A DNA stretch of 64,000 nt, taken from a virus. Taxonomy: Duplodnaviria > Heunggongvirae > Uroviricota > Caudoviricetes. Under the pieces are notes generated by a model. That model had not been told where the DNA came from. It was given only the letters and a program-made list of their open reading frames with translations, and did not search any database. Shown one piece after another: positions 1 to 59,339 of this stretch; positions within the stretch are counted from its first letter, which is position 1; the number at the start of each line of letters is the position of its first letter. Made by a program: the position numbers and the translations under genes. The stretch lies in IMG/VR virus record IMGVR_UViG_2778260994_000001; one strand, given 5' to 3'.

Positions 1-73
1 TTTTGCGAATTGCCTCCGTGTCGTCTGAACGATATTTTTTCCCGCTTTTAGCAACAATCGCTGGTGATAAAGT

Positions 74-655
74 ATGCAATATGGTTATGCGAGAGTGTCA
101 ACTTTTGACCAAAATTTAGAATTACAACTGGAGGCGCTCAGGAGTTCAGGATGTGACCGGATTTTTGAAGATAAAATATCCGGTGCGAAGTCAAAACGAC
201 CAGGGCTTGATAAGCTGATAAAAGTGTTGCGGCCTGGCGATACGGTTGTTGTCTGGAAACTGGACCGAATGGGACGTTCTCTGATTCATCTTGTTGAGTT
301 ACTGAACTTTTTTTTATCAAACAACATTGAGTTTATTTCGGTTACAGAAGGGATAAAAATTAGCACATCAATTGGCCGCTTTGCTTACACGATGCTGAGT
401 GCGGCTGCAGAGCTGGAGCGGGAAAATATTATTGAAAGAACGCGTGCAGGATTGGCTGTGGCAAGGGCTAACGGCAGGATAGGAGGACGCCGTTCAAAAC
501 TGACACCAGAGCAATGGGAGCAGGCCGGACGTTTATTAGCGCAAGGAGTCCCCCGCAAGCAGGTCGCATTGATCTACGATGTGGCTCTGTCAACTTTGTA
601 TAAAAAACACCCCGCCAAACGAACGTGCATAGAAAGTAACGCTCAAACCAATTGA
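74..655 (+). CDS. Serine recombinase / DNA invertase (Hin/Gin/Cin family), intact
   Basis: N-terminal catalytic motif YARVST; C-terminal HTH (GRIGGRRSKLTPEQWEQAGRLLAQGVPRKQVALIYDVALSTLYKK) close to Hin/Cin; N-terminal half divergent from Cin. Confidence 0.85.
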   Translation: MQYGYARVSTFDQNLELQLEALRSSGCDRIFEDKISGAKSKRPGLDKLIKVLRPGDTVVVWKLDRMGRSLIHLVELLNFFLSNNIEFISVTEGIKISTSIGRFAYTMLSAAAELERENIIERTRAGLAVARANGRIGGRRSKLTPEQWEQAGRLLAQGVPRKQVALIYDVALSTLYKKHPAKRTCIESNAQTN

Positions 656-787
656 ATCGGTCGGCAACACAGATTGATTGTGCCCCAATAGCCACACTCA
701 ACCCACGATGTTTTTTTCGATAGTGGCGAATTGATGTAAAGGAGGTGAGATGAAATCAATTCGCTGTAAGACCTCCATTTTCCAACA

Positions 788-1012
788 TCACAACCAAGTA
801 ACGCTGCTGCCCGCAAAATGATCTAACGCCCATACGACCAGGGTGTCACCTCTGGAAAGCATACGCAAAACCTTTTTTAGCCCTGGGCGTTCAGCCTTTT
901 TGCCGCTCGCCTTGTCCTCAAAAATCAGCTCACATCTTGCGCTTTCAAGGGCATTTCGTTGCAAAGCAGTGTTTTGTTCATTTGTTGATACGCGTACATA
1001 GCCTATTAGCAT
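788..1012 (-). pseudogene. 5' remnant of a Cin-like DNA invertase (about 65 codons, then stop)
   Basis: MLIGYVRVSTNEQNTALQRNAL...GDTLVVW matches the Hin/Cin N-terminus, then diverges and terminates; convergent with the intact invertase. Confidence 0.7.
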
Positions 1013-1136
1013 ATTTTCTGCTCACTATCGTTATTTATAGCAAGCTGCGGATTTTAATTAACAAAAACCAGTATGTGTGGAAATCACAAAGTACATACCG
1101 TTCCCCAATGACGAACAACTCAAAATTGGCAAGGTT

Positions 1137-1421
1137 TTTATGTCTGACTTTACAATTTTATTTTTATCTATCTTTGGCGGAGTGCATTCGTTTCTGAATG
1201 GGGTTCGTGAAAAACGTTACGAAGCGTCATGCAGGCAATTGCTGGCCGAGTGTATTGCTGCCGTACTTGCAGGCTTTATAGGCATGTATTTCGCGGAATA
1301 TAAGGGTATGGATGAAAGTCTTCAGAATTGCGTGACTATTATTTGCAGCATCAATAACAGGCTCATTCTTGAAAAGTTACAAAGGATTATCGATTCGTAC
1401 CTCAATAGAAATGCCTCTTAA
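1137..1421 (+). CDS. Holin-like small membrane protein (LydC-like), paralog of the next gene
   Basis: Hydrophobic segments; collinear similarity to the 1489-1818 product; start moved to internal ATG with AAGG RBS. Confidence 0.45.
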   Translation, partial: FMSDFTILFLSIFGGVHSFLNGVREKRYEASCRQLLAECIAAVLAGFIGMYFAEYKGMDESLQNCVTIICSINNRLILEKLQRIIDSYLNRNAS

Positions 1422-1488
1422 GCAACAAATGACCGGTTGAGAAGTTACTTTGCATACCATTACCTCCTGACAACGTAGGAGGGAACTT

Positions 1489-1818
1489 GTGCTTGACACA
1501 CAGGAATTAGCTCCAGTTGCTATTGCGCTCCTGCTTTCAGTAATTGGTGGGATAGGCACGTTCCTGATGGATGTCCGAGACGGTCGCCAGTCTGGCAATT
1601 TGTTGGGATTGGTTACGGAGATCTTTGTTGCAGTGACAGCTGGCGCGGTGGCGTACCTATTGGGGCAACACGAGGGCTGGGAGTTATCAATTACGTACTT
1701 AATGGTAACGATAGCCAGCAATAACGGTCATGAGGTGATTTCAGGGATGAAACGAGTGAATATCGATAGCATTCTGAATGTTCTTACAAGTTTGGTGAAA
1801 AAGGGAGGCGGGAAATGA
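1489..1818 (+). CDS. lydA: Holin-like membrane protein (LydA-like)
   Basis: Two to three predicted TM segments; first gene of a dar-type operon by position. Confidence 0.45.
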   Translation: MLDTQELAPVAIALLLSVIGGIGTFLMDVRDGRQSGNLLGLVTEIFVAVTAGAVAYLLGQHEGWELSITYLMVTIASNNGHEVISGMKRVNIDSILNVLTSLVKKGGGK

Positions 1819-2258
1819 TTGGCTGGGGTGTATGCGTTCTTGCGTTAGCCTTAGCCGATCGCTATTTGCTAAAACGCAAGGACATCACGCATTTAGAACT
1901 TGGTGATGTGGAAATTAAACCGGGTTTCATCCGGGTGCCGTTCAAATACCGGTCTAAATTCCCGTTTTTGCGCGGCGCAACGGTCAGTTATTGGATCCGC
2001 GATGTTCAGAAGCCGACGACAGTGATTGAAGGCGAACAACGTTGTCTGACGTCGGCTGAACAGGGCGAAAACAGTGAATGGTTGTACATACCCACTGAAT
2101 ATATGGGTAAAGGAGAGCGACTGTGGCATTTCAACGTCATGGTTACGCATGGCGACTCGTTCATTAACCCGTTGTATCGGATTTTCCCTGTTTCTCAGCA
2201 AATCCGCAGAAGTTACGTAATAAATCTCGCACAGGATGTGTCAGATGACGAAAAATAA
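1815..2258 (+). CDS. lydB: LydB-like lysis regulator (antiholin candidate)
   Basis: 147 aa, start overlaps stop of the upstream holin-like gene; assigned by position and size only. Confidence 0.35.
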   Translation: MIGWGVCVLALALADRYLLKRKDITHLELGDVEIKPGFIRVPFKYRSKFPFLRGATVSYWIRDVQKPTTVIEGEQRCLTSAEQGENSEWLYIPTEYMGKGERLWHFNVMVTHGDSFINPLYRIFPVSQQIRRSYVINLAQDVSDDEK

Positions 2259-2847
2259 GTATGCAACGGTCGATTTTGACCAGGTTAATGAAAAGGGGCT
2301 GAAATCCCTTATCGCGGCGATCAATAAAACCGGTGTTACGGTAATTGAGGTTGACTCCAGCAACCGCGCAACAACGAAAGATGGCGTTAAAGTTAAAACC
2401 GCAAAGCTGGTTCTTAACGACGGACAAATTCTTGCCATACAGGTAAACGATACTGGCGATATATCGTCTGTGAAGCTGAATGGAAAAGCTATTCCTAACG
2501 CTCAGTCGCCGGATATCAAGACGCTTGGTACCGTCATGGGGCAAGCGGCCCGCAAAAACTCCGCAAAATTCCAGAAATCACTGATCGCCAAAGCGAAACG
2601 TGTTGCCAATCCGGTAGACAAGAAACCGGCAGTAAAATCCAACTTTCAGCGCCTGCAAGAGGCAAAACAGCGGAATGCTCAGGTGGTTGCCGCTTATAAA
2701 TCAGCGCAGAACTCGGTGTCTTTCAATCAACAGCAGATCACTGATTTGCGGGCGAAGCTGGATAAGGAGACAGGCCGACTCAATAACGAAAAGGCCCGAA
2801 ATGGCGAACTCAAACGCCGTCTTAAGCAACTGAAAGCAGGAAATTAA
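2236..2847 (+). CDS. hdf: Hdf (homolog of DarA fragment)
   Basis: Shares a KNSAKFQ-containing segment with DarA; sits immediately upstream of darA. Confidence 0.55.
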   Translation: MCQMTKNKYATVDFDQVNEKGLKSLIAAINKTGVTVIEVDSSNRATTKDGVKVKTAKLVLNDGQILAIQVNDTGDISSVKLNGKAIPNAQSPDIKTLGTVMGQAARKNSAKFQKSLIAKAKRVANPVDKKPAVKSNFQRLQEAKQRNAQVVAAYKSAQNSVSFNQQQITDLRAKLDKETGRLNNEKARNGELKRRLKQLKAGN

Positions 2848-2848
2848 C

Positions 2849-4768
2849 ATGGAACAGTTCAATATCAATAAAGGGGTGACGATCAAGCCTGGGCTTGACG
2901 TGCTTCCCCCGCCAGTGACTGATGATGAATATCGCGCATTAATGGCCGGTGAGGACCGCTATCTGATGACGGAATCCAACACCCTGGAGGAAATCGAGGC
3001 TACGTTCTTCTATGACACGCCGATCCACTGGTGTGCTACGGATTTACTGGAGGCGATTAGTTCTACTCGTTTGCAGTTACACCGGACCATGCAGGCATTT
3101 GTCCGGGCATTGAACCAGAAGCTGAATGGTACCGGAATCTCTGCGGGGAGTGATAAAACGGGGGATGTGGCCCAGAGCGGCGCGCGCGCGATCGGCGGCG
3201 CTGAAATTGGCCGGGCACGTAACGTTAACGGGCTGCCGGTCCTGCCAGCCATTATTCCGCTCAGTGATGGTCAGACTATCAGCATTCTGTTTCATAGCCC
3301 GACAGCGGAAAACCGGATCACCAATAGCGATACGCTGGTTGCTTTCCAGTTCTTACTGAATAAAAAAGACGTTACTCACACCGTTGCTCCGATGAGTGGA
3401 CGTGATATGACGCTGGCGCAGGTCACCATGAAACTTGCCAACCTTGCAGAGAAAAACTCGGCAAAATTCCAGCGTGCGCAGAAGAAGAAAAAAGCCCTTG
3501 TTGATGAAATAACCCAACTACAGGCTGACAGTGACCAGAAAGAGGATGCCATGAGCGACCTCGCGGATCAGGTGGCAGCGGTAGAAGGGCAGAAGGCAGA
3601 TCTGGAGCAGAAAATTAACGCTGTTGCATCGGAAGCGGATTCTCTTTATGAAGAGAATGAGCGTTTGCAGACGGAGATTGATCAGCTCAATCGCACTGGT
3701 GGGCGCGATACCATTGCTCCAGCGGGGATGACTGGTGGGCACTCTCGCGCGCTGACGGATCGCCTTGCCAGTATCAAAAATCGTATGCATATGGACGGGG
3801 AAGCGACGCTCAGTAATGGTGCATCAATGAAGCAATTCATTGGGGATGGCGAAGGGTATATCCAGTTAACCGATCCGGATGGCAGCGTATACATGATCAA
3901 GGCTAAATCCATACAGGGTGTGGACATGGCAGATGCGATCGGCAAGCTGTTTAAAGCCTATAAAGCGGGTAATGTATCGGAATATCTGGTCCAACCAGAA
4001 GAACATAAACCGGAAAACGTCGAACCTGAACCAGCGGAGGATACCGGTAGCTCTTCGCCTGAACCAGAAGTCTCTGTAGGTGCATATCGATATGCCCTGC
4101 AAATGCGTCCGGCGGCCCCTGGCGCAATACCTGAAGGTAACAAAGCGATTCTGCCGCGCCCTGATGAAGGTGACCCGTATTATGAATATGCACGCTACGG
4201 CATTGCTACTTACGATACCCCGCTTTCTGATCAGCAAATGAGTGAGTACGACCTGAAGTTATTGCCTCGCGAGGATTCTTTCGACTTCCTGGCGAAGACA
4301 CTTACTAATGGTCCGTTTGGCAAATATGCACAAAAAGCTCTGGAGCTGGCCACCAGCTCACCAGACGAGTTCCGCGTAATGCTGAAAACTCAGTTTCAAA
4401 AAACTTTCCCCAATATTGCGTTTCCTGGGGGAGCTGGCACCGAGAAAATGGTGCAGAGCATGATCAATGCATTGCAGGCCGAAGTCGGTGAGATTACTCA
4501 GCCAGAACCGGCCCCGGCACAGCCTGATGAAACGGTTAGCGAAGCAGATGCAGAGGCTAATAAAGCCATTGAATATCTCAATAACGTGATGGATATGAAA
4601 AGCACTGACATGGCGGAGATCCGTAACGCCCGGGGCAATGTCCGGGAAGCGATTGCAGCCCTTCAGGCTGCCGGACGTTTTGAGGAAAACGAAGAGCTGG
4701 TTAACGGCGCAGCTCGCCACCTGGCTGATCTGCTGGTAGCAATCCAGAAAGCGGGGGTAGCGGCATGA
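2849..4768 (+). CDS. darA: DarA antirestriction / head-internal protein
   Basis: 639 aa, matching recalled P1 DarA size; coiled-coil middle; position in operon. Confidence 0.7.
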   Translation: MEQFNINKGVTIKPGLDVLPPPVTDDEYRALMAGEDRYLMTESNTLEEIEATFFYDTPIHWCATDLLEAISSTRLQLHRTMQAFVRALNQKLNGTGISAGSDKTGDVAQSGARAIGGAEIGRARNVNGLPVLPAIIPLSDGQTISILFHSPTAENRITNSDTLVAFQFLLNKKDVTHTVAPMSGRDMTLAQVTMKLANLAEKNSAKFQRAQKKKKALVDEITQLQADSDQKEDAMSDLADQVAAVEGQKADLEQKINAVASEADSLYEENERLQTEIDQLNRTGGRDTIAPAGMTGGHSRALTDRLASIKNRMHMDGEATLSNGASMKQFIGDGEGYIQLTDPDGSVYMIKAKSIQGVDMADAIGKLFKAYKAGNVSEYLVQPEEHKPENVEPEPAEDTGSSSPEPEVSVGAYRYALQMRPAAPGAIPEGNKAILPRPDEGDPYYEYARYGIATYDTPLSDQQMSEYDLKLLPREDSFDFLAKTLTNGPFGKYAQKALELATSSPDEFRVMLKTQFQKTFPNIAFPGGAGTEKMVQSMINALQAEVGEITQPEPAPAQPDETVSEADAEANKAIEYLNNVMDMKSTDMAEIRNARGNVREAIAALQAAGRFEENEELVNGAARHLADLLVAIQKAGVAA

Positions 4769-5130
4769 CACTATCAGCTATTGAGTTAATGGATCTCAGC
4801 GATAAGTTGGATGCTCTGATGTCCAAGGCGGCTACCGCGAGTGGCATGGAGTTGCTGGATATCAGCGATGAAATTGACCAGATCATGCAACAGATGGGGT
4901 ACGGCGCGTCCGGCGGCAGTAGTGGCGAGGAAAAACAACCTTCGGTACATGATGGTGTGCCAAAACTGGTTGCTGATTTCCTGGCTGATAAATTCGTCGA
5001 TCAGAGCACAGATGCATTTATCGGTACCTTGCAGGACTTGAGTCAATATGTTGGCACATACATCGACCTGGACCAGGTTAAACAGCACACGGCGGCATGG
5101 ATAGCCGCCAACATTAAAGAGGCAGCATAA
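4765..5130 (+). CDS. ddrA: DdrA-like small protein of the dar operon
   Basis: 121 aa, overlaps darA stop; assigned by position. Confidence 0.45.
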   Translation: MTLSAIELMDLSDKLDALMSKAATASGMELLDISDEIDQIMQQMGYGASGGSSGEEKQPSVHDGVPKLVADFLADKFVDQSTDAFIGTLQDLSQYVGTYIDLDQVKQHTAAWIAANIKEAA

Positions 5131-5142
5131 GGCGTAACAGGG

Positions 5143-8130
5143 ATGAGCTTAAGCGATCAGGTGGTTATGGCCACCAGCATAGAAACGCTGATCGAGCTGC
5201 TAAAGAACCTGCCCGATTATGGGCGGGTTTCGTATGTGGTGACAGCGAAGGGAGACGAGGTAAAAACAGCGTTTGATATCGTCGATGCCTCGGCTCTTTT
5301 GGTATCCAATACTCTGGACGGGAAAATTAATCCGGACTATCCCCAGGAACTTCAGCCGCGCGACCGGACCCGCGCATCCAGCCTTCTTCAGGTTAACCAG
5401 ATATCCAAAGATTTGCGACCTGCTCAGCTTACCGATTCCGGTTTATCCAGCCATGGCGCGCCGATAATTGGTGAGGACAATGCCGTTGAGTCGGGTAATG
5501 GACGGACCATGGGGATCATTAAAGCCTATCAGGACGGCAATGCGGATCGGTATCGGGAGTATCTGATTGAACATGCGACCGAATTCGGCATACGACCTGA
5601 AAAGGTTGAATCAATGACGGCCCCGGTACTGGTGCGCCGCCGGTTAACTAAGGTTGACCGCGTTCAGTTTGCCAAGGACTCAAATATTTCTGATCTTCAG
5701 GAAATGGCAGCCAGTGAAAAGGCTTTTGTTGATGCCGACAACATAACTTCGGCGATGATGGCGCTGTTTAACCCGTCAGAAAGCGGAGATCTGCTTAGCC
5801 GCAGTAATGACGCGTTTATCCGCGGATTCATGACGCAAGTTGGTGCCACACAGGCTGCTGGCCTTGTAACGGAAGATGGGCGACCAACACGGCAACTTGT
5901 AGACCGTATACAAAACGCGATCTTTGCCAAGGCATATAAGGATGCGCGCCTGGTAAGGATGGTTGCAGAAGAACCTGATCCAGATATGCGTAATGTTCTG
6001 ACGGCGCTTAATGCGGCAGCCAATGATTTTGTCCAGATGCAGGCTTTATCAGGTGAAGCGCACAAGCAGGCTGTGACAACTATTGTTGATGGTATTGAGA
6101 CAGCGGATAGTCTCGATAAAAAGGCGCTGGCGGCATTGAAAGATGCGGTAGACCTGGTAAGGCAATCGAAGGAGTCAGGCCAACATATTACCGATGTTAT
6201 TGCTCAGGGGGATATGTTCAGCGAAACGGCCCCGGAAGTGAAAGCACTCGCGTTGTTTATCGTCGCGAATAACCGTAGCGCGAAGCGTATGGCCACCGCC
6301 TTTAAGTTGATGGCGCAACGTATCAATGATGAGTTACAGCACCAGGGCCAGGCGCTCGGGGATATGTTTGGCGGCGGCGATGTGTCGTTACAGGATATCC
6401 TTCGCCAGGTGTCTCAGGAACTGGAAAACGAAGGTATGCAAGGGATATCCAGCGGTCTTTTCGAGTCAGCTTCCGGCGGTAGTTACAACGGTGTTGCTCC
6501 ATATACCAGTTTGCTATTACATCGGGCATCCGGCATCAAAGACATTATTCATCTGATCAGGCTGCTTTCCCGTACAGATCCCCAGGATGAACAGCTTGTA
6601 CAAGTGCTTGCGCATTTTGTTCGAATGCCTGTTGCCGACGTGAAAAAATGGTGCCGATTATTCGGTATCAGCAATTCGTTACTTCGCGGCTTGTTAAATC
6701 ACGCATCCTCCCTTGGGCGCGATGGCTTTGACGAGATAGCGCAGGCGATAAAAAACGGAGATATGCCACCAGCTATTGACTGGTTTTCCATTCGCCCAAC
6801 CAGGGTGAAAGCATTCCTTAGCGCGGCGCATTCGGCATCACCATTGGCAGAAATGGTTCAGAGGTTGTCGCTCATATTCACAGATCATACCGCGTTGGGT
6901 GATCTGACTCTTGACGAGATGAAAGAAGCCTCCATTCAGTGGGCCGATCAACAAAATGAGGTTAACTCTGACTTCTTGCCAGCATTCAGGAAGGCCGTTA
7001 GTAAAGCGGATGATGCCCGTGGAATTCTGAAGGCATTTAAGGCATTGCAAAGTCGGGTTAATAAACATGTCGGTGGTATCGATGGAGTAACGGCGGAAGG
7101 CAGGGATATCCTTAAAGAGCACGGCATAACGCCAGAGTTTATTGATGAGATCAGGACGGATATGCAGCGTGAGGTCGTATCGTCCCTGCAAATTGTAGCC
7201 AGGGCGTTGGCGGATGCTAATCCGAAGAGTGCGGCCATTGTTAACCGGGTTATTGGTGATATTGAAGCATCGGAGGGCATGGGGGCGCTGAAACTCTTCC
7301 TTTCGCGAGCGTTTAATCCTAACGGCAATATTCTCCCTGGCATTATTGGTGAGGCTAAAAAGTATGTCAGTGAAGAAGAACTTGAGCAGCTTGACCAACT
7401 ACTTAAGCGATTCTCATATAACCCGCAGACACGCTGGCAAATGAATCAGCGAAGTATGGGGTCGGTCCACGAGAAAGTGTTATCTGCCATGAACAGTGCG
7501 ATCGCAAACTCATCCGTATCTGAAGAAAAAGCTCTTGAGTGGGCCGACTCTTTTATCACGGAAGAAGTGGAAGAAGCCCGCGCTGGACAGAATGGTGGGA
7601 TAGACCTGCGCAAGGAACTTGCTGATATTTATCGCCTGACCGGCGGGAAAATATCGACCTTATCAAAGGTGATTCACCACCAGGGAAGGGCATATGCAAA
7701 TCTAAATGGTGTTGTTGCTGTCAATTTGAACGATGAAAATGCAAGTGCACTGTGGCACGAGCTGGGTCATCATCTTGAGTACAGTAACCCTGGTTTGTTA
7801 GAGAAAGCCCGGTCATTCCTGAAGGCCAATGTTGAAGGGGATAAGCCATCATTCGTCAATATCGGTGGGCGTGGCAAGCCTGAATGGTGCTTCAGATCTC
7901 GATTGAGTAATATTTATATGGCGAAGGTATACCCGCCAGTCTCAGTGAGTAACTCAGGGAAAATTCGGCAGAAATCACCGACTATTTCCAAAACGTCAGC
8001 AACGGAAGTATTCTCTATGGCTCTTCAGTTGTATCATGACAAAGAGGCCGCTGCCGCATCACTGATGAATGGTGACGGATTGCTGGAACTGTTATTAGGT
8101 GTGGCAAAGGAGCTAAATAATGCAGATTAA
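5143..8130 (+). CDS. ddrB: DdrB-like large protein of the dar operon
   Basis: 995 aa ORF with no competing frame; size and position consistent with DdrB. Confidence 0.5.
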   Translation: MSLSDQVVMATSIETLIELLKNLPDYGRVSYVVTAKGDEVKTAFDIVDASALLVSNTLDGKINPDYPQELQPRDRTRASSLLQVNQISKDLRPAQLTDSGLSSHGAPIIGEDNAVESGNGRTMGIIKAYQDGNADRYREYLIEHATEFGIRPEKVESMTAPVLVRRRLTKVDRVQFAKDSNISDLQEMAASEKAFVDADNITSAMMALFNPSESGDLLSRSNDAFIRGFMTQVGATQAAGLVTEDGRPTRQLVDRIQNAIFAKAYKDARLVRMVAEEPDPDMRNVLTALNAAANDFVQMQALSGEAHKQAVTTIVDGIETADSLDKKALAALKDAVDLVRQSKESGQHITDVIAQGDMFSETAPEVKALALFIVANNRSAKRMATAFKLMAQRINDELQHQGQALGDMFGGGDVSLQDILRQVSQELENEGMQGISSGLFESASGGSYNGVAPYTSLLLHRASGIKDIIHLIRLLSRTDPQDEQLVQVLAHFVRMPVADVKKWCRLFGISNSLLRGLLNHASSLGRDGFDEIAQAIKNGDMPPAIDWFSIRPTRVKAFLSAAHSASPLAEMVQRLSLIFTDHTALGDLTLDEMKEASIQWADQQNEVNSDFLPAFRKAVSKADDARGILKAFKALQSRVNKHVGGIDGVTAEGRDILKEHGITPEFIDEIRTDMQREVVSSLQIVARALADANPKSAAIVNRVIGDIEASEGMGALKLFLSRAFNPNGNILPGIIGEAKKYVSEEELEQLDQLLKRFSYNPQTRWQMNQRSMGSVHEKVLSAMNSAIANSSVSEEKALEWADSFITEEVEEARAGQNGGIDLRKELADIYRLTGGKISTLSKVIHHQGRAYANLNGVVAVNLNDENASALWHELGHHLEYSNPGLLEKARSFLKANVEGDKPSFVNIGGRGKPEWCFRSRLSNIYMAKVYPPVSVSNSGKIRQKSPTISKTSATEVFSMALQLYHDKEAAAASLMNGDGLLELLLGVAKELNNAD

Positions 8131-35492: not shown

Positions 35493-35567
35493 TGTTTCAG
35501 TGAAACATTAAAATCTCCTTGATGTGGAAACAATCATTTTCTGTATGTGCTGGTGGGTACCTGTAGT

Positions 35568-35918
35568 TCAGCTTTCGTTGGCATTTAACTTCGTCTTTGC
35601 TTTCTCCACCAGCAACTTCCAGATGCCTATTTCATTAGCAGCCGCCTTGATGGCGGCATAAAAAGCATCTTGCTGATCGTAACGCTGAATCTGTTTTTTC
35701 AGTTTTGCCTCCACCAATTTAATTTCATTACGTGCTTTCTGAAGCCGCCGCGCCGCCCGGTTACGTCTGTTCTTGTATAGCGCGTTAATCTCTGACAATT
35801 GCTTTAATTTACCAGCCTGACTGCGGATTATCGCCTCTCTGACTTCTGCCGTGCGTCTCATCTGATCTCTTAAGAGTTCACCGTTTTCGATAATTCTTTC
35901 AAGGTGTTTGATGTGCAA
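35568..35918 (-). CDS. Hypothetical basic coiled-coil protein
   Basis: 116-aa ORF. Confidence 0.45.
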   Translation of the reverse strand: MHIKHLERIIENGELLRDQMRRTAEVREAIIRSQAGKLKQLSEINALYKNRRNRAARRLQKARNEIKLVEAKLKKQIQRYDQQDAFYAAIKAAANEIGIWKLLVEKAKTKLNANES

Positions 35919-57266: not shown

Positions 57267-57342
57267 TGGTGGCCCCTACCGGACTTGAACCGGTGACCGT
57301 GCGATTATGAGTCGCCAGCTCTAACCACTGAGCTAAAGGGCC
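57267..57342 (-). tRNA. tRNA with CAU anticodon (Ile2 lysidine-type, or Met)
   Basis: Cloverleaf by eye: acceptor GGCCCTT, D-arm GCTCAGTGGTTAGAGC, anticodon loop CTCATAA, T-arm GGTTCAAGTCC, 3' CCA. Confidence 0.85.
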
Positions 57343-58414: not shown

Positions 58415-59096
58415 CCTCTCACTCCATTATTTAACGAATAAAAAAGCTGCGGTGCCGGGTGCCTCCCGGTGTCCTTTGGCTGGTTATCCACCGTGGACGG
58501 GGAAACAAGGAGAAATGAATGGACTGATATAACCATTTCCCCGCGTGCGCTTAGCCGCATTCACCGCAATGGTAAGAGCACTTGGCTGGCTGGGCGGCGA
58601 TGACGCCTGTACGCATTTGTTGATCCGGTTCTGCTTCCGGCATTCGCTTAATTAGCCAAATACTCTTAACGTTGCGCTGGCGGAGAGTAATGGAATCGAA
58701 CCATCATCGCTTGCGCTATGGGACGGTTTTCAAGACCGCTTGAGCACCATGCTCCCTACTCTCCAGTGATTGTGGTGGTCGGTGCTGAACTCCGACACAG
58801 GGTTGTAGCAAGCCCCGCAAAGCGCGCACTACTGTAGTTGCGGCACATCAGCCTGTACATTCACCACAATGTTGAGAACACTGGTTGTCACGCGGCAACG
58901 CAACATTTATTCATAGATTGGGATATGACCCCGTTACGCCAATGTTCTCAACGTTGTAGTGCCGGTTACGGTTCCGGCCAGGCCTCTTCCTCAACGGGGT
59001 GTTCTCCATACGGACTACCGTTTATTGGTCGTTCCTGCGGTTTATGTTGTGAAGCCAGATGCTTATCTTCTGGTTGCTTCTAAGAGCTGCACTTCA

Positions 59097-59186
59097 TCAC
59101 AACGGTAAGGGTACTTCGTAGGGATTCGAACCCTCTGCCAAGCTCGGCGATCTCCGACGTCGCAAAATACCCTTACCTGTTGTGCT
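59097..59186 (-). ncRNA. tRNA-like remnant: T-arm and acceptor-like long stem, no anticodon arm
   Basis: GGGTTCGAATCCC T-arm enclosed by a roughly 16-bp stem; too short for a full tRNA. Confidence 0.3.
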
Positions 59187-59261
59187 GGTGCCGATTAACG
59201 GACTCGAACCGCTGACATCCTGCTTACAAGGCAGGCGCTCTACCAACTGAGCTAAACCGGC
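59186..59261 (-). tRNA. tRNA-Thr (UGU)
   Basis: Acceptor GCCGGTT, D-arm GCTCAGTTGGTAGAGC, anticodon loop CTTGTAA, T-arm GGTTCGAGTCC, CCA. Confidence 0.9.
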
Positions 59262-59263
59262 AT

Positions 59264-59339
59264 TGGCGATGGTGGATGGATTTGAACCATCGACCCGTTG
59301 ATTAACAGTCAACCGCTCTAACCGCTGAGCTACACCATC
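59264..59339 (-). tRNA. tRNA-Asn (GUU)
   Basis: Perfect 7-bp acceptor GATGGTG/CACCATC, anticodon loop CTGTTAA, T-arm GGTTCAAATCC, CCA; 2 nt from trnT. Confidence 0.9.

Follow-up and report, generated by a model that had tools for sequence, protein, structure and literature searches.

The closest described systems to the locus analyzed here are the G segment of phage Mu with its invertase Gin, the C segment of phage P1 with Cin, and the switch of a 48-kb phage-plasmid (hereafter p48). In Mu, the order is gixL-Sv-U-U'-Sv'-gixR-gin-com-mom; in this layout, the invertase gene is transcribed away from the invertible segment and contains the enhancer in its 5' part. The p48 system, represented by pATCC25922_1 and by 'hin' of Yersinia phage vB_YpM_39, likewise inverts a tail-fiber segment, and its invertase gene is followed by repA, without Mu or cin fragments. 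Gin, Cin, Hin and Pin cross-complement, that is, members of the family substitute for one another. Neither distance nor orientation matters to the enhancers of the Gin/Cin/Hin family; work on Hin and Fis has given the Fis core pattern GNNYRWWWWWYRNNC and a spacing of 48 bp. In P1-like phage-plasmids, lydC-cin-Sv'-U'-U-S constitutes a hypervariable region (PMC9603915, PMC6906374), and truncated or reversed cin/invertase genes are reported in such elements (PMC6906374).

The DNA under study (the window) is a stretch of 64,000 nucleotides. It is a P1-like IncY phage-plasmid; its replicon is that of a P1-like plasmid prophage, unlike that of the transposable phage Mu. Positions 1–3000 are 99.2% identical to Salmonella phage SJ46 (Punavirus SJ46), and from position 780 onward the identity to phage P1 is ~97%. 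IncY plasmids of E. coli (CP088811) and E. fergusonii (NZ_CP057563, NZ_CP057567) are 100% identical to window 1–1140, with the E. fergusonii plasmids mismatched at one of 7640 positions. To the right of the cin region, the gene order is P1-like: lydC, lydA, lydB, hdf, darA, ddrA, ddrB. SJ46 has the same junctions as the window, and its genes 'pin' and a 74-aa 'DNA invertase' are already annotated in GenBank and RefSeq, where plasmid records list both ORFs too; it differs in the interior of the variable segment and in an IS605-family insertion, whose transposase gene (insQ) sits between ddrA and ddrB. These two genes adjoin in the window (5130–5143), as they do in P1. The features of the locus are collected in Table 1.

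Table 1. Features at the left end of the window and in the adjoining crossover site (negative positions lie upstream of the window).
Feature	Position	Strand	Basis or remarks
Complete right crossover site, TTCTCTTAAACC-AA-GGTTTTTGCGAA	-17..9	.	6484–6509 in E. fergusonii plasmid L004
Outer 9 nt (TTTTGCGAA) of the right 26-bp crossover site	1..9	.	Outer half-site is that of p48
Leader and probable weak promoter region of the invertase, p48 type	10..73	+	~93% identical to p48 plasmid L006, unlike Mu
Intact chimeric serine DNA invertase, 193 aa	74..655	+	Pfam Resolvase and HTH_7
Enhancer-like element of the invertase	92..163	.	Fis-type cores TGTCAACTTTTGACC (96–110) and GTTCAGGATGTGACC (144–158)
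Junction J2, p48 type to Mu gin type	497..525	.	Three-way alignment and Pfam domain limits
Mu-type gin-com intergenic (mom promoter) region and com codons 1–7	656..772	+	88–92% identical to Mu
Junction J3, com' to cin'	771..776	.	Same in SJ46, pTB502, L009, L010 and an IMG/VR contig
cin 5' remnant, ~237 bp (ORF 788–1012, 74 aa)	776..1012	-	Pfam and alignment to P1 cin
Whole Cin enhancer (P1 31678–31749; cin nt 19–90)	923..994	.	P1 record annotation
cin promoter region	1013..1139	-	P1 annotation; predicted P1cin 1051–1083, P2cin 1108–1134
lydC holin gene	1140..1421	+	First intact backbone gene right of the replaced region

The cassette at the left end of the window has the gene order and orientation of the Mu G segment and gin. 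An earlier note, made on this DNA from its letters, had described an intact serine invertase with a diverged N-terminal half and a Hin/Cin-like C-terminus, and the protein bears this out. It matches both Pfam Resolvase (PF00239, E 7.8e-44, residues 3–135) and HTH_7 (PF02796, E 4.4e-15, residues 138–181), with the YARVST and WKLDRMGRS motifs in the catalytic domain and a helix-turn-helix at the C-terminus. Residues 1–140 are 94% identical to the p48 invertase vs. 55% to Gin and 58% to Cin; residues 141–193 are 77% identical to Gin vs. 64% to p48, whose protein also has a shorter tail (184 aa). The DNA follows the same pattern. In a three-way alignment of the window, Mu and L006, the stretch from -3 to ~520 is ~93% identical to p48 and ~55–60% identical to Mu, while 497–772 is ~90% identical to Mu gin-com (segments 88–92%; Mu 35515–35787). 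Put in terms of parts, the leader, the outer half-site, the enhancer-like region and the catalytic domain are ~90–94% identical to those of p48, and the DNA for the last ~50 invertase residues, the mom-promoter region and com codons 1–7 are 88–92% identical to those of Mu. The junction J2 falls in the linker between the catalytic and DNA-binding domains. Judged by these alignments, the gene is a hybrid, with a catalytic domain from the p48 lineage and a DNA-binding domain from Mu Gin; it is because the gene is a chimera that a diverged N-terminal half is found beside a Gin-like C-terminus. A sigma-70 scan of the leader gave no strong match. The closest relative of the catalytic domain is the invertase at 6074–6628 of L006 and L007 (NZ_CP057564, NZ_CP057568), 48.7-kb phage-plasmids found in the same E. 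fergusonii strains as the window-type P1-like plasmid.

Beyond the invertase stop, the window resembles Mu as far as the beginning of com: the com' frame starts with the ATG at 750 and encodes the peptide MKSIRCK, and the homology to com ends after codon 7. Unlike Mu, the window has no intact com-mom operon with a Dam/OxyR-controlled promoter region at 656–772, as com is cut, mom is absent and the control region is altered. In Mu, this control region has three GATC (Dam) sites, which correspond to window 640–680; every one of them is mutated here (ACGATCGAA to ACGCTCAAA, TCGATCGG to TCGGTCGG, and AGATCGAT to AGATTGAT). The same losses are present in L009 and L010, which carry the same com'-cin' junction on a diverged backbone. 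The chance of losing all three sites at ~11% divergence is ~5%, making the observation only marginally notable; the losses fit a control region with nothing left to control. The invertase and the remnant ORF are convergent, with 132 bp between the stop at 655 and the end of the remnant ORF at 788.

The window begins inside the right crossover site, 9 nt of which lie within it. Besides the backbone and the ends of the segment, the locus shares crossover-site sequence with P1. Its left site, which lies in gene S, is the same as cixR; in the right site, the inner half and the central AA match cixL exactly, and the segment DNA next to them matches the P1 C segment exactly. The outer half of the right site, which differs from that of cixL, is identical to the outer half of the p48 site. 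Read inward in L004, the two sites are TTATCCAATACC TT GGTTTAAGAGAA and TTCGCAAAAACC TT GGTTTAAGAGAA; the central dinucleotide is thus TT/AA, as opposed to TC/GA in the p48 sites. Two inverted 26-bp sites with an AAACC-NN-GGTTT core flank the invertible segment beside the invertase gene. A search of the 64-kb window for extra crossover-type cores that might act as alternative partners yielded two one-mismatch matches vs. 2.4 expected, and such partners were discounted.

Does this switch operate? Indeed, both orientations of the segment are found in near-identical plasmids, indicating that it inverts. The E. fergusonii plasmids L004 and L005, each of 95,926 bp and from sister isolates of the same farm sample, are identical outside the segment across the 14-kb region compared, and the 4204 bp between their crossover sites are an exact reverse complement (0 mismatches). 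Similarly, the corresponding 3.2-kb segment is inverted between the SJ46 GenBank record and two Salmonella plasmids (L098 and L099), with collinear flanks and 99.8–99.97% identity when compared as the reverse complement. The supposition that any inversion segment would lie upstream of position 1 is thereby borne out, with inverted crossover sites, alternative orientations in two lineages, and the 4204-bp inversion immediately upstream. We infer that the 74–655 invertase catalyzed the observed inversions. There are other possible catalysts: the E. fergusonii hosts also hold a p48 plasmid with a related invertase, and Salmonella has Hin. Window-type and p48 switches share a cell in these strains, and cross-action or recombination between them could occur. 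A 40-kb viral contig from IMG/VR (L096) with the same cassette starts 13 nt upstream of window position 1, within the crossover site; this start is probably an assembly break caused by a population of mixed orientation.

The minus-strand ORF that faces the invertase matches the Resolvase profile at positions 2–80 of 145 only (E 5.7e-20) and has no helix-turn-helix. Its identity to P1 cin is 100% at 995–1012, 93% at 923–994 and 92% at 836–922, and it drops to 75% at 776–835, where a 1-bp deletion near 800 breaks the frame. The remnant is Cin-like for ~61 residues and then degrades; in the WKLDRLGRS motif, conserved K/R residues have disappeared, and 776–1012 encodes neither a full-length catalytic domain nor a DNA-binding domain. 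The minus-strand 5' cin fragment of '65 or so' residues proposed earlier is accordingly real, and with an identity of 92–100% to P1 cin over 836–1012 it is not a chance ORF. In that part, 10 codon changes relative to P1 are synonymous and one is not (G26R, C>T at 937); as the differences are almost exclusively synonymous, cin appears still to have been functional while this portion diverged. The base change behind G26R (Gly to Arg at Cin codon 26) is specific to the window lineage, with C at this position in SJ46, P1, L009 and L010; it lies at the center of Fis-type core II of the remnant and renders that core more A/T-rich. The remainder, 776–835, is nearer to the L009/L010 type (84%) than to P1 (75%), and the L009 and L010 remnants carry different frameshifting indels. 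On the far side of the remnant, 1013–1100 aligns nearly identically to P1, and the predicted P1cin and P2cin promoters now point through the remnant toward the 3' end of the incoming gene. Between 1012 and 655, the minus strand showed no terminator-like site. A promoter/terminator scan of window 1–1500 returned nothing above shuffled expectation, a null result that does not bear on whether the two genes are transcriptionally isolated.

The locus has two enhancer-like elements. An alignment of the 5' ends of four invertase genes (gin, cin, that of p48 and that of the window) shows two Fis-type 15-mers in each, at gene nt 23–37 and 71–85, 48 bp apart. In the window invertase, the centers of the cores have this spacing, and the first lies ~107 bp from the crossover center, a distance that matches the geometry of native Hin. 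Aligning the remnant with the known enhancer, as had been proposed, revealed that it contains the complete Cin enhancer annotated in P1: 923–994 is collinear with this experimentally defined element, with five substitutions in 72 bp. The Fis-type cores of the remnant, TATCAACAAATGAAC (976–990) and GCGCAAGATGTGAGC (928–942), retain the 48-bp spacing and lie in cis, 0.93–0.99 kb away from the crossover site. Each of the lineages compared (window, SJ46, L009, L010) has both of these cores intact. At the level of sequence, the window switch belongs with the Gin/Cin/Hin/Pin invertase systems, its enhancer being putative.

What, then, is the role of the cin stump? We consider it probable (about 75%) that this locus represents the right end of a functional tail-fiber switch of the Fis-enhancer type in which the recombinase gene has been replaced and the stump is a redundant scar. 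The earlier note had suggested that the remnant may persist as a cis element. Under such a scheme, its Fis-bound enhancer would serve the newly acquired invertase as its principal enhancer or as an additional one adjusting the inversion frequency; the whole annotated enhancer is retained at 93% identity, both of its cores have stayed intact in SJ46, L009 and L010 as well as in the window, and family enhancers are indifferent to distance and orientation. However, the new gene has canonical cores of its own, in a region that differs at 0 of 72 positions between the window and the diverged L009/L010 lineage, whereas the remnant enhancer differs at 9–11 of 72. Its identity of 85–87% is no better than that of the rest of the remnant (84–90%), and a constrained cis element is not apparent in this comparison. 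Moreover, inversion in the p48 relatives takes place with no remnant present: an exact 3048-bp inversion separates two assemblies of pATCC25922_1, the p48 plasmid of ATCC 25922, and no cin-like sequence was found in that plasmid; thus, an invertase 5' end of the p48 type suffices in cis. Independent cin truncations in other P1-like phages leave ~177 nt, ~50 nt or nothing: phi456 keeps ~50 nt, with core I only, and Ro157c2YLVW is without cin and lydC. Finally, cixL and lydC are separated by ~690 bp; for a right junction placed randomly in this interval, we estimate that most events would produce a stump and that about two-thirds would keep the enhancer by chance. A cis-acting role for the remnant is, in our judgment, unlikely, and that part of the earlier proposal is not supported.

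The stump might instead act through its promoters. If P1cin and P2cin drove antisense transcription into the 3' end of the invertase gene, expression and switching frequency would be lowered; the retained promoter region (near-identical to P1 up to ~1100), the convergence of the genes and the lack of a terminator-like site on the minus strand between 1012 and 655 are all compatible with this notion. Yet the P1 record lists these promoters only as predicted, and the sequence upstream of the remnant ATG in L009 and L010 is unrelated, so the feature is not conserved with the junction; we regard such a brake as very unlikely. The two ideas can be combined, with the stump as a regulatory add-on whose second enhancer and antisense promoters would jointly set the switching rate of the chimeric invertase, an arrangement that we hold to be quite unlikely. 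If it were true, cin stumps would have been repeatedly co-opted when P1-like phages swap invertase cassettes, with phage vB_EcoM-813R1 as an independent junction of similar layout. The idea that the 74-aa product is a functional peptide, perhaps one that modulates the 74–655 enzyme, has the least to recommend it and is hardly credible. This product would comprise the N-terminal third of Cin with the catalytic serine, its ORF is open with the native start in the window and SJ46, and RefSeq annotates it as a protein; but the frame is broken at different points in L009 and L010, and the catalytic core from the arginine motif of WKLDRLGRS onward, the E helix and the DNA-binding domain are all missing. 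PGAP, for its part, labels the ORF a pseudogene in CP159120. The lineage-specific frameshifts led us to reject a useful peptide.

We return to the redundant scar and to how the locus may have arisen. The module replacement at the invertible tail-fiber region that had been surmised takes the form of a three-way mosaic with sharp switches in identity. A cassette of ~780 bp, made up of the outer half-site, the chimeric invertase gene, the Mu mom-promoter region and seven com codons, would have been joined to the P1 C segment exactly at the crossover-site core; the shared AAACC-NN-GG core contains the left junction. The chimeric gene would have brought with it an internal enhancer from the 48-kb phage-plasmid lineage. 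On the right side, illegitimate recombination inside cin would have joined the cassette and removed the 3'-terminal ~60% of cin together with cixL's outer half. The invertase, aided by Fis at its own 5' enhancer (96–158), would then invert the segment between -17..9 and the cixR-type site in gene S, thereby switching the tail-fiber tip and host range. The stump would be left as a non-coding scar with an intact-looking but redundant enhancer, and any firing of its promoters would be antisense, toward the new gene.

As a stretch of homology, the stump may nonetheless have been of consequence: it was probably the right-hand homology arm by which the cassette moved between P1-like backbones, with a crossover near 836. 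The same com'-cin' junction is present on two diverged backbones, that of the window, SJ46 and pTB502 and that of L009 and L010; in the latter, the sequence beyond the cin ATG is unrelated to the window type. Within the remnant, the identity steps at ~836. Plain decay of P1 cin was rejected as an account of 776–835, given its identity of 84% to the L009/L010 type vs. 75% to P1, and a mosaic remnant appears more likely than one that decayed uniformly. The simplest reading is that the cassette would have entered by homologous recombination, with one crossover in the tail-fiber/crossover-site region and the other in the stump near 836. Searches of E. coli, species-representative genomes and IMG/VR found no donor with the whole cassette (1–772) outside a P1-like backbone. 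Among complete E. coli genomes, there was one further P1-like plasmid only; in the species-representative genomes, the best match was at 81% amino acid identity, in a Buttiauxella MAG; and a hybrid-specific 30-mer matched only P1-like contigs in IMG/VR. Because no donor was found, the order of the three junction events is a matter of deduction.

Compared with P1, then, the window has a foreign, chimeric recombinase gene in the opposite orientation and a stump in place of cin. Such replacement is ordinary mosaic evolution at a known hot-spot: in vB_EcoM-813R1, phi456, pSvP1, pTZ20_1P and pJIE250-3, cin has been replaced or truncated at the same place. These P1-like elements have other junctions and other incoming invertases, and several are thought to be switchless, whereas the window-type switch still inverts. 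813R1 has a similar layout: a plus-strand invertase, different from that of the window, runs into a cin stump that begins at ~833 in window coordinates. In that genome (L014), the invertase occupies 1798–2369 and the stump ~2500–2680, with a junction unlike the window's; the invertase is annotated as two ORFs (Hin1/Hin2) and is thus apparently frameshifted. The origin of the invertase as a p48/Gin chimera, the piece of Mu DNA with the mom promoter and com', and the joining at the crossover core appear not to have been described in the comparative papers on P1-like elements (PMC9603915, PMC6906374).

The locus offers a natural example of a phage host-range switch rebuilt from parts, in which a domain-boundary chimera was joined at the crossover core and the segment still flips. 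It adds no new mechanism, and a retained enhancer sequence is not evidence of retained function. It does suggest that enhancer-bearing invertase cassettes are portable units and that leftover gene stumps can be homology arms for their spread among P1-like phage-plasmids, elements that are relevant as carriers of resistance genes.

Two minor observations concern the wider setting. The 146-kb IncHI1B plasmid pTB502 (NZ_CP034821) has the invertase-remnant-lyd-dar block at 3579–6108, with an IS26 transposase gene ~0.8 kb upstream of the block; the presence of the block indicates that a fragment of a P1-like element was captured by a large resistance-type plasmid. Elsewhere in the window, ARAGORN calls a tRNA-Ser(tga) at 58678–58764 on the minus strand, which Rfam does not report at its gathering score; three tRNAs nearby are backed by both ARAGORN and Rfam, namely a Met-type tRNA with a CAT anticodon (57267–57342), a tRNA-Thr (59186–59261) and a tRNA-Asn (59264–59339).
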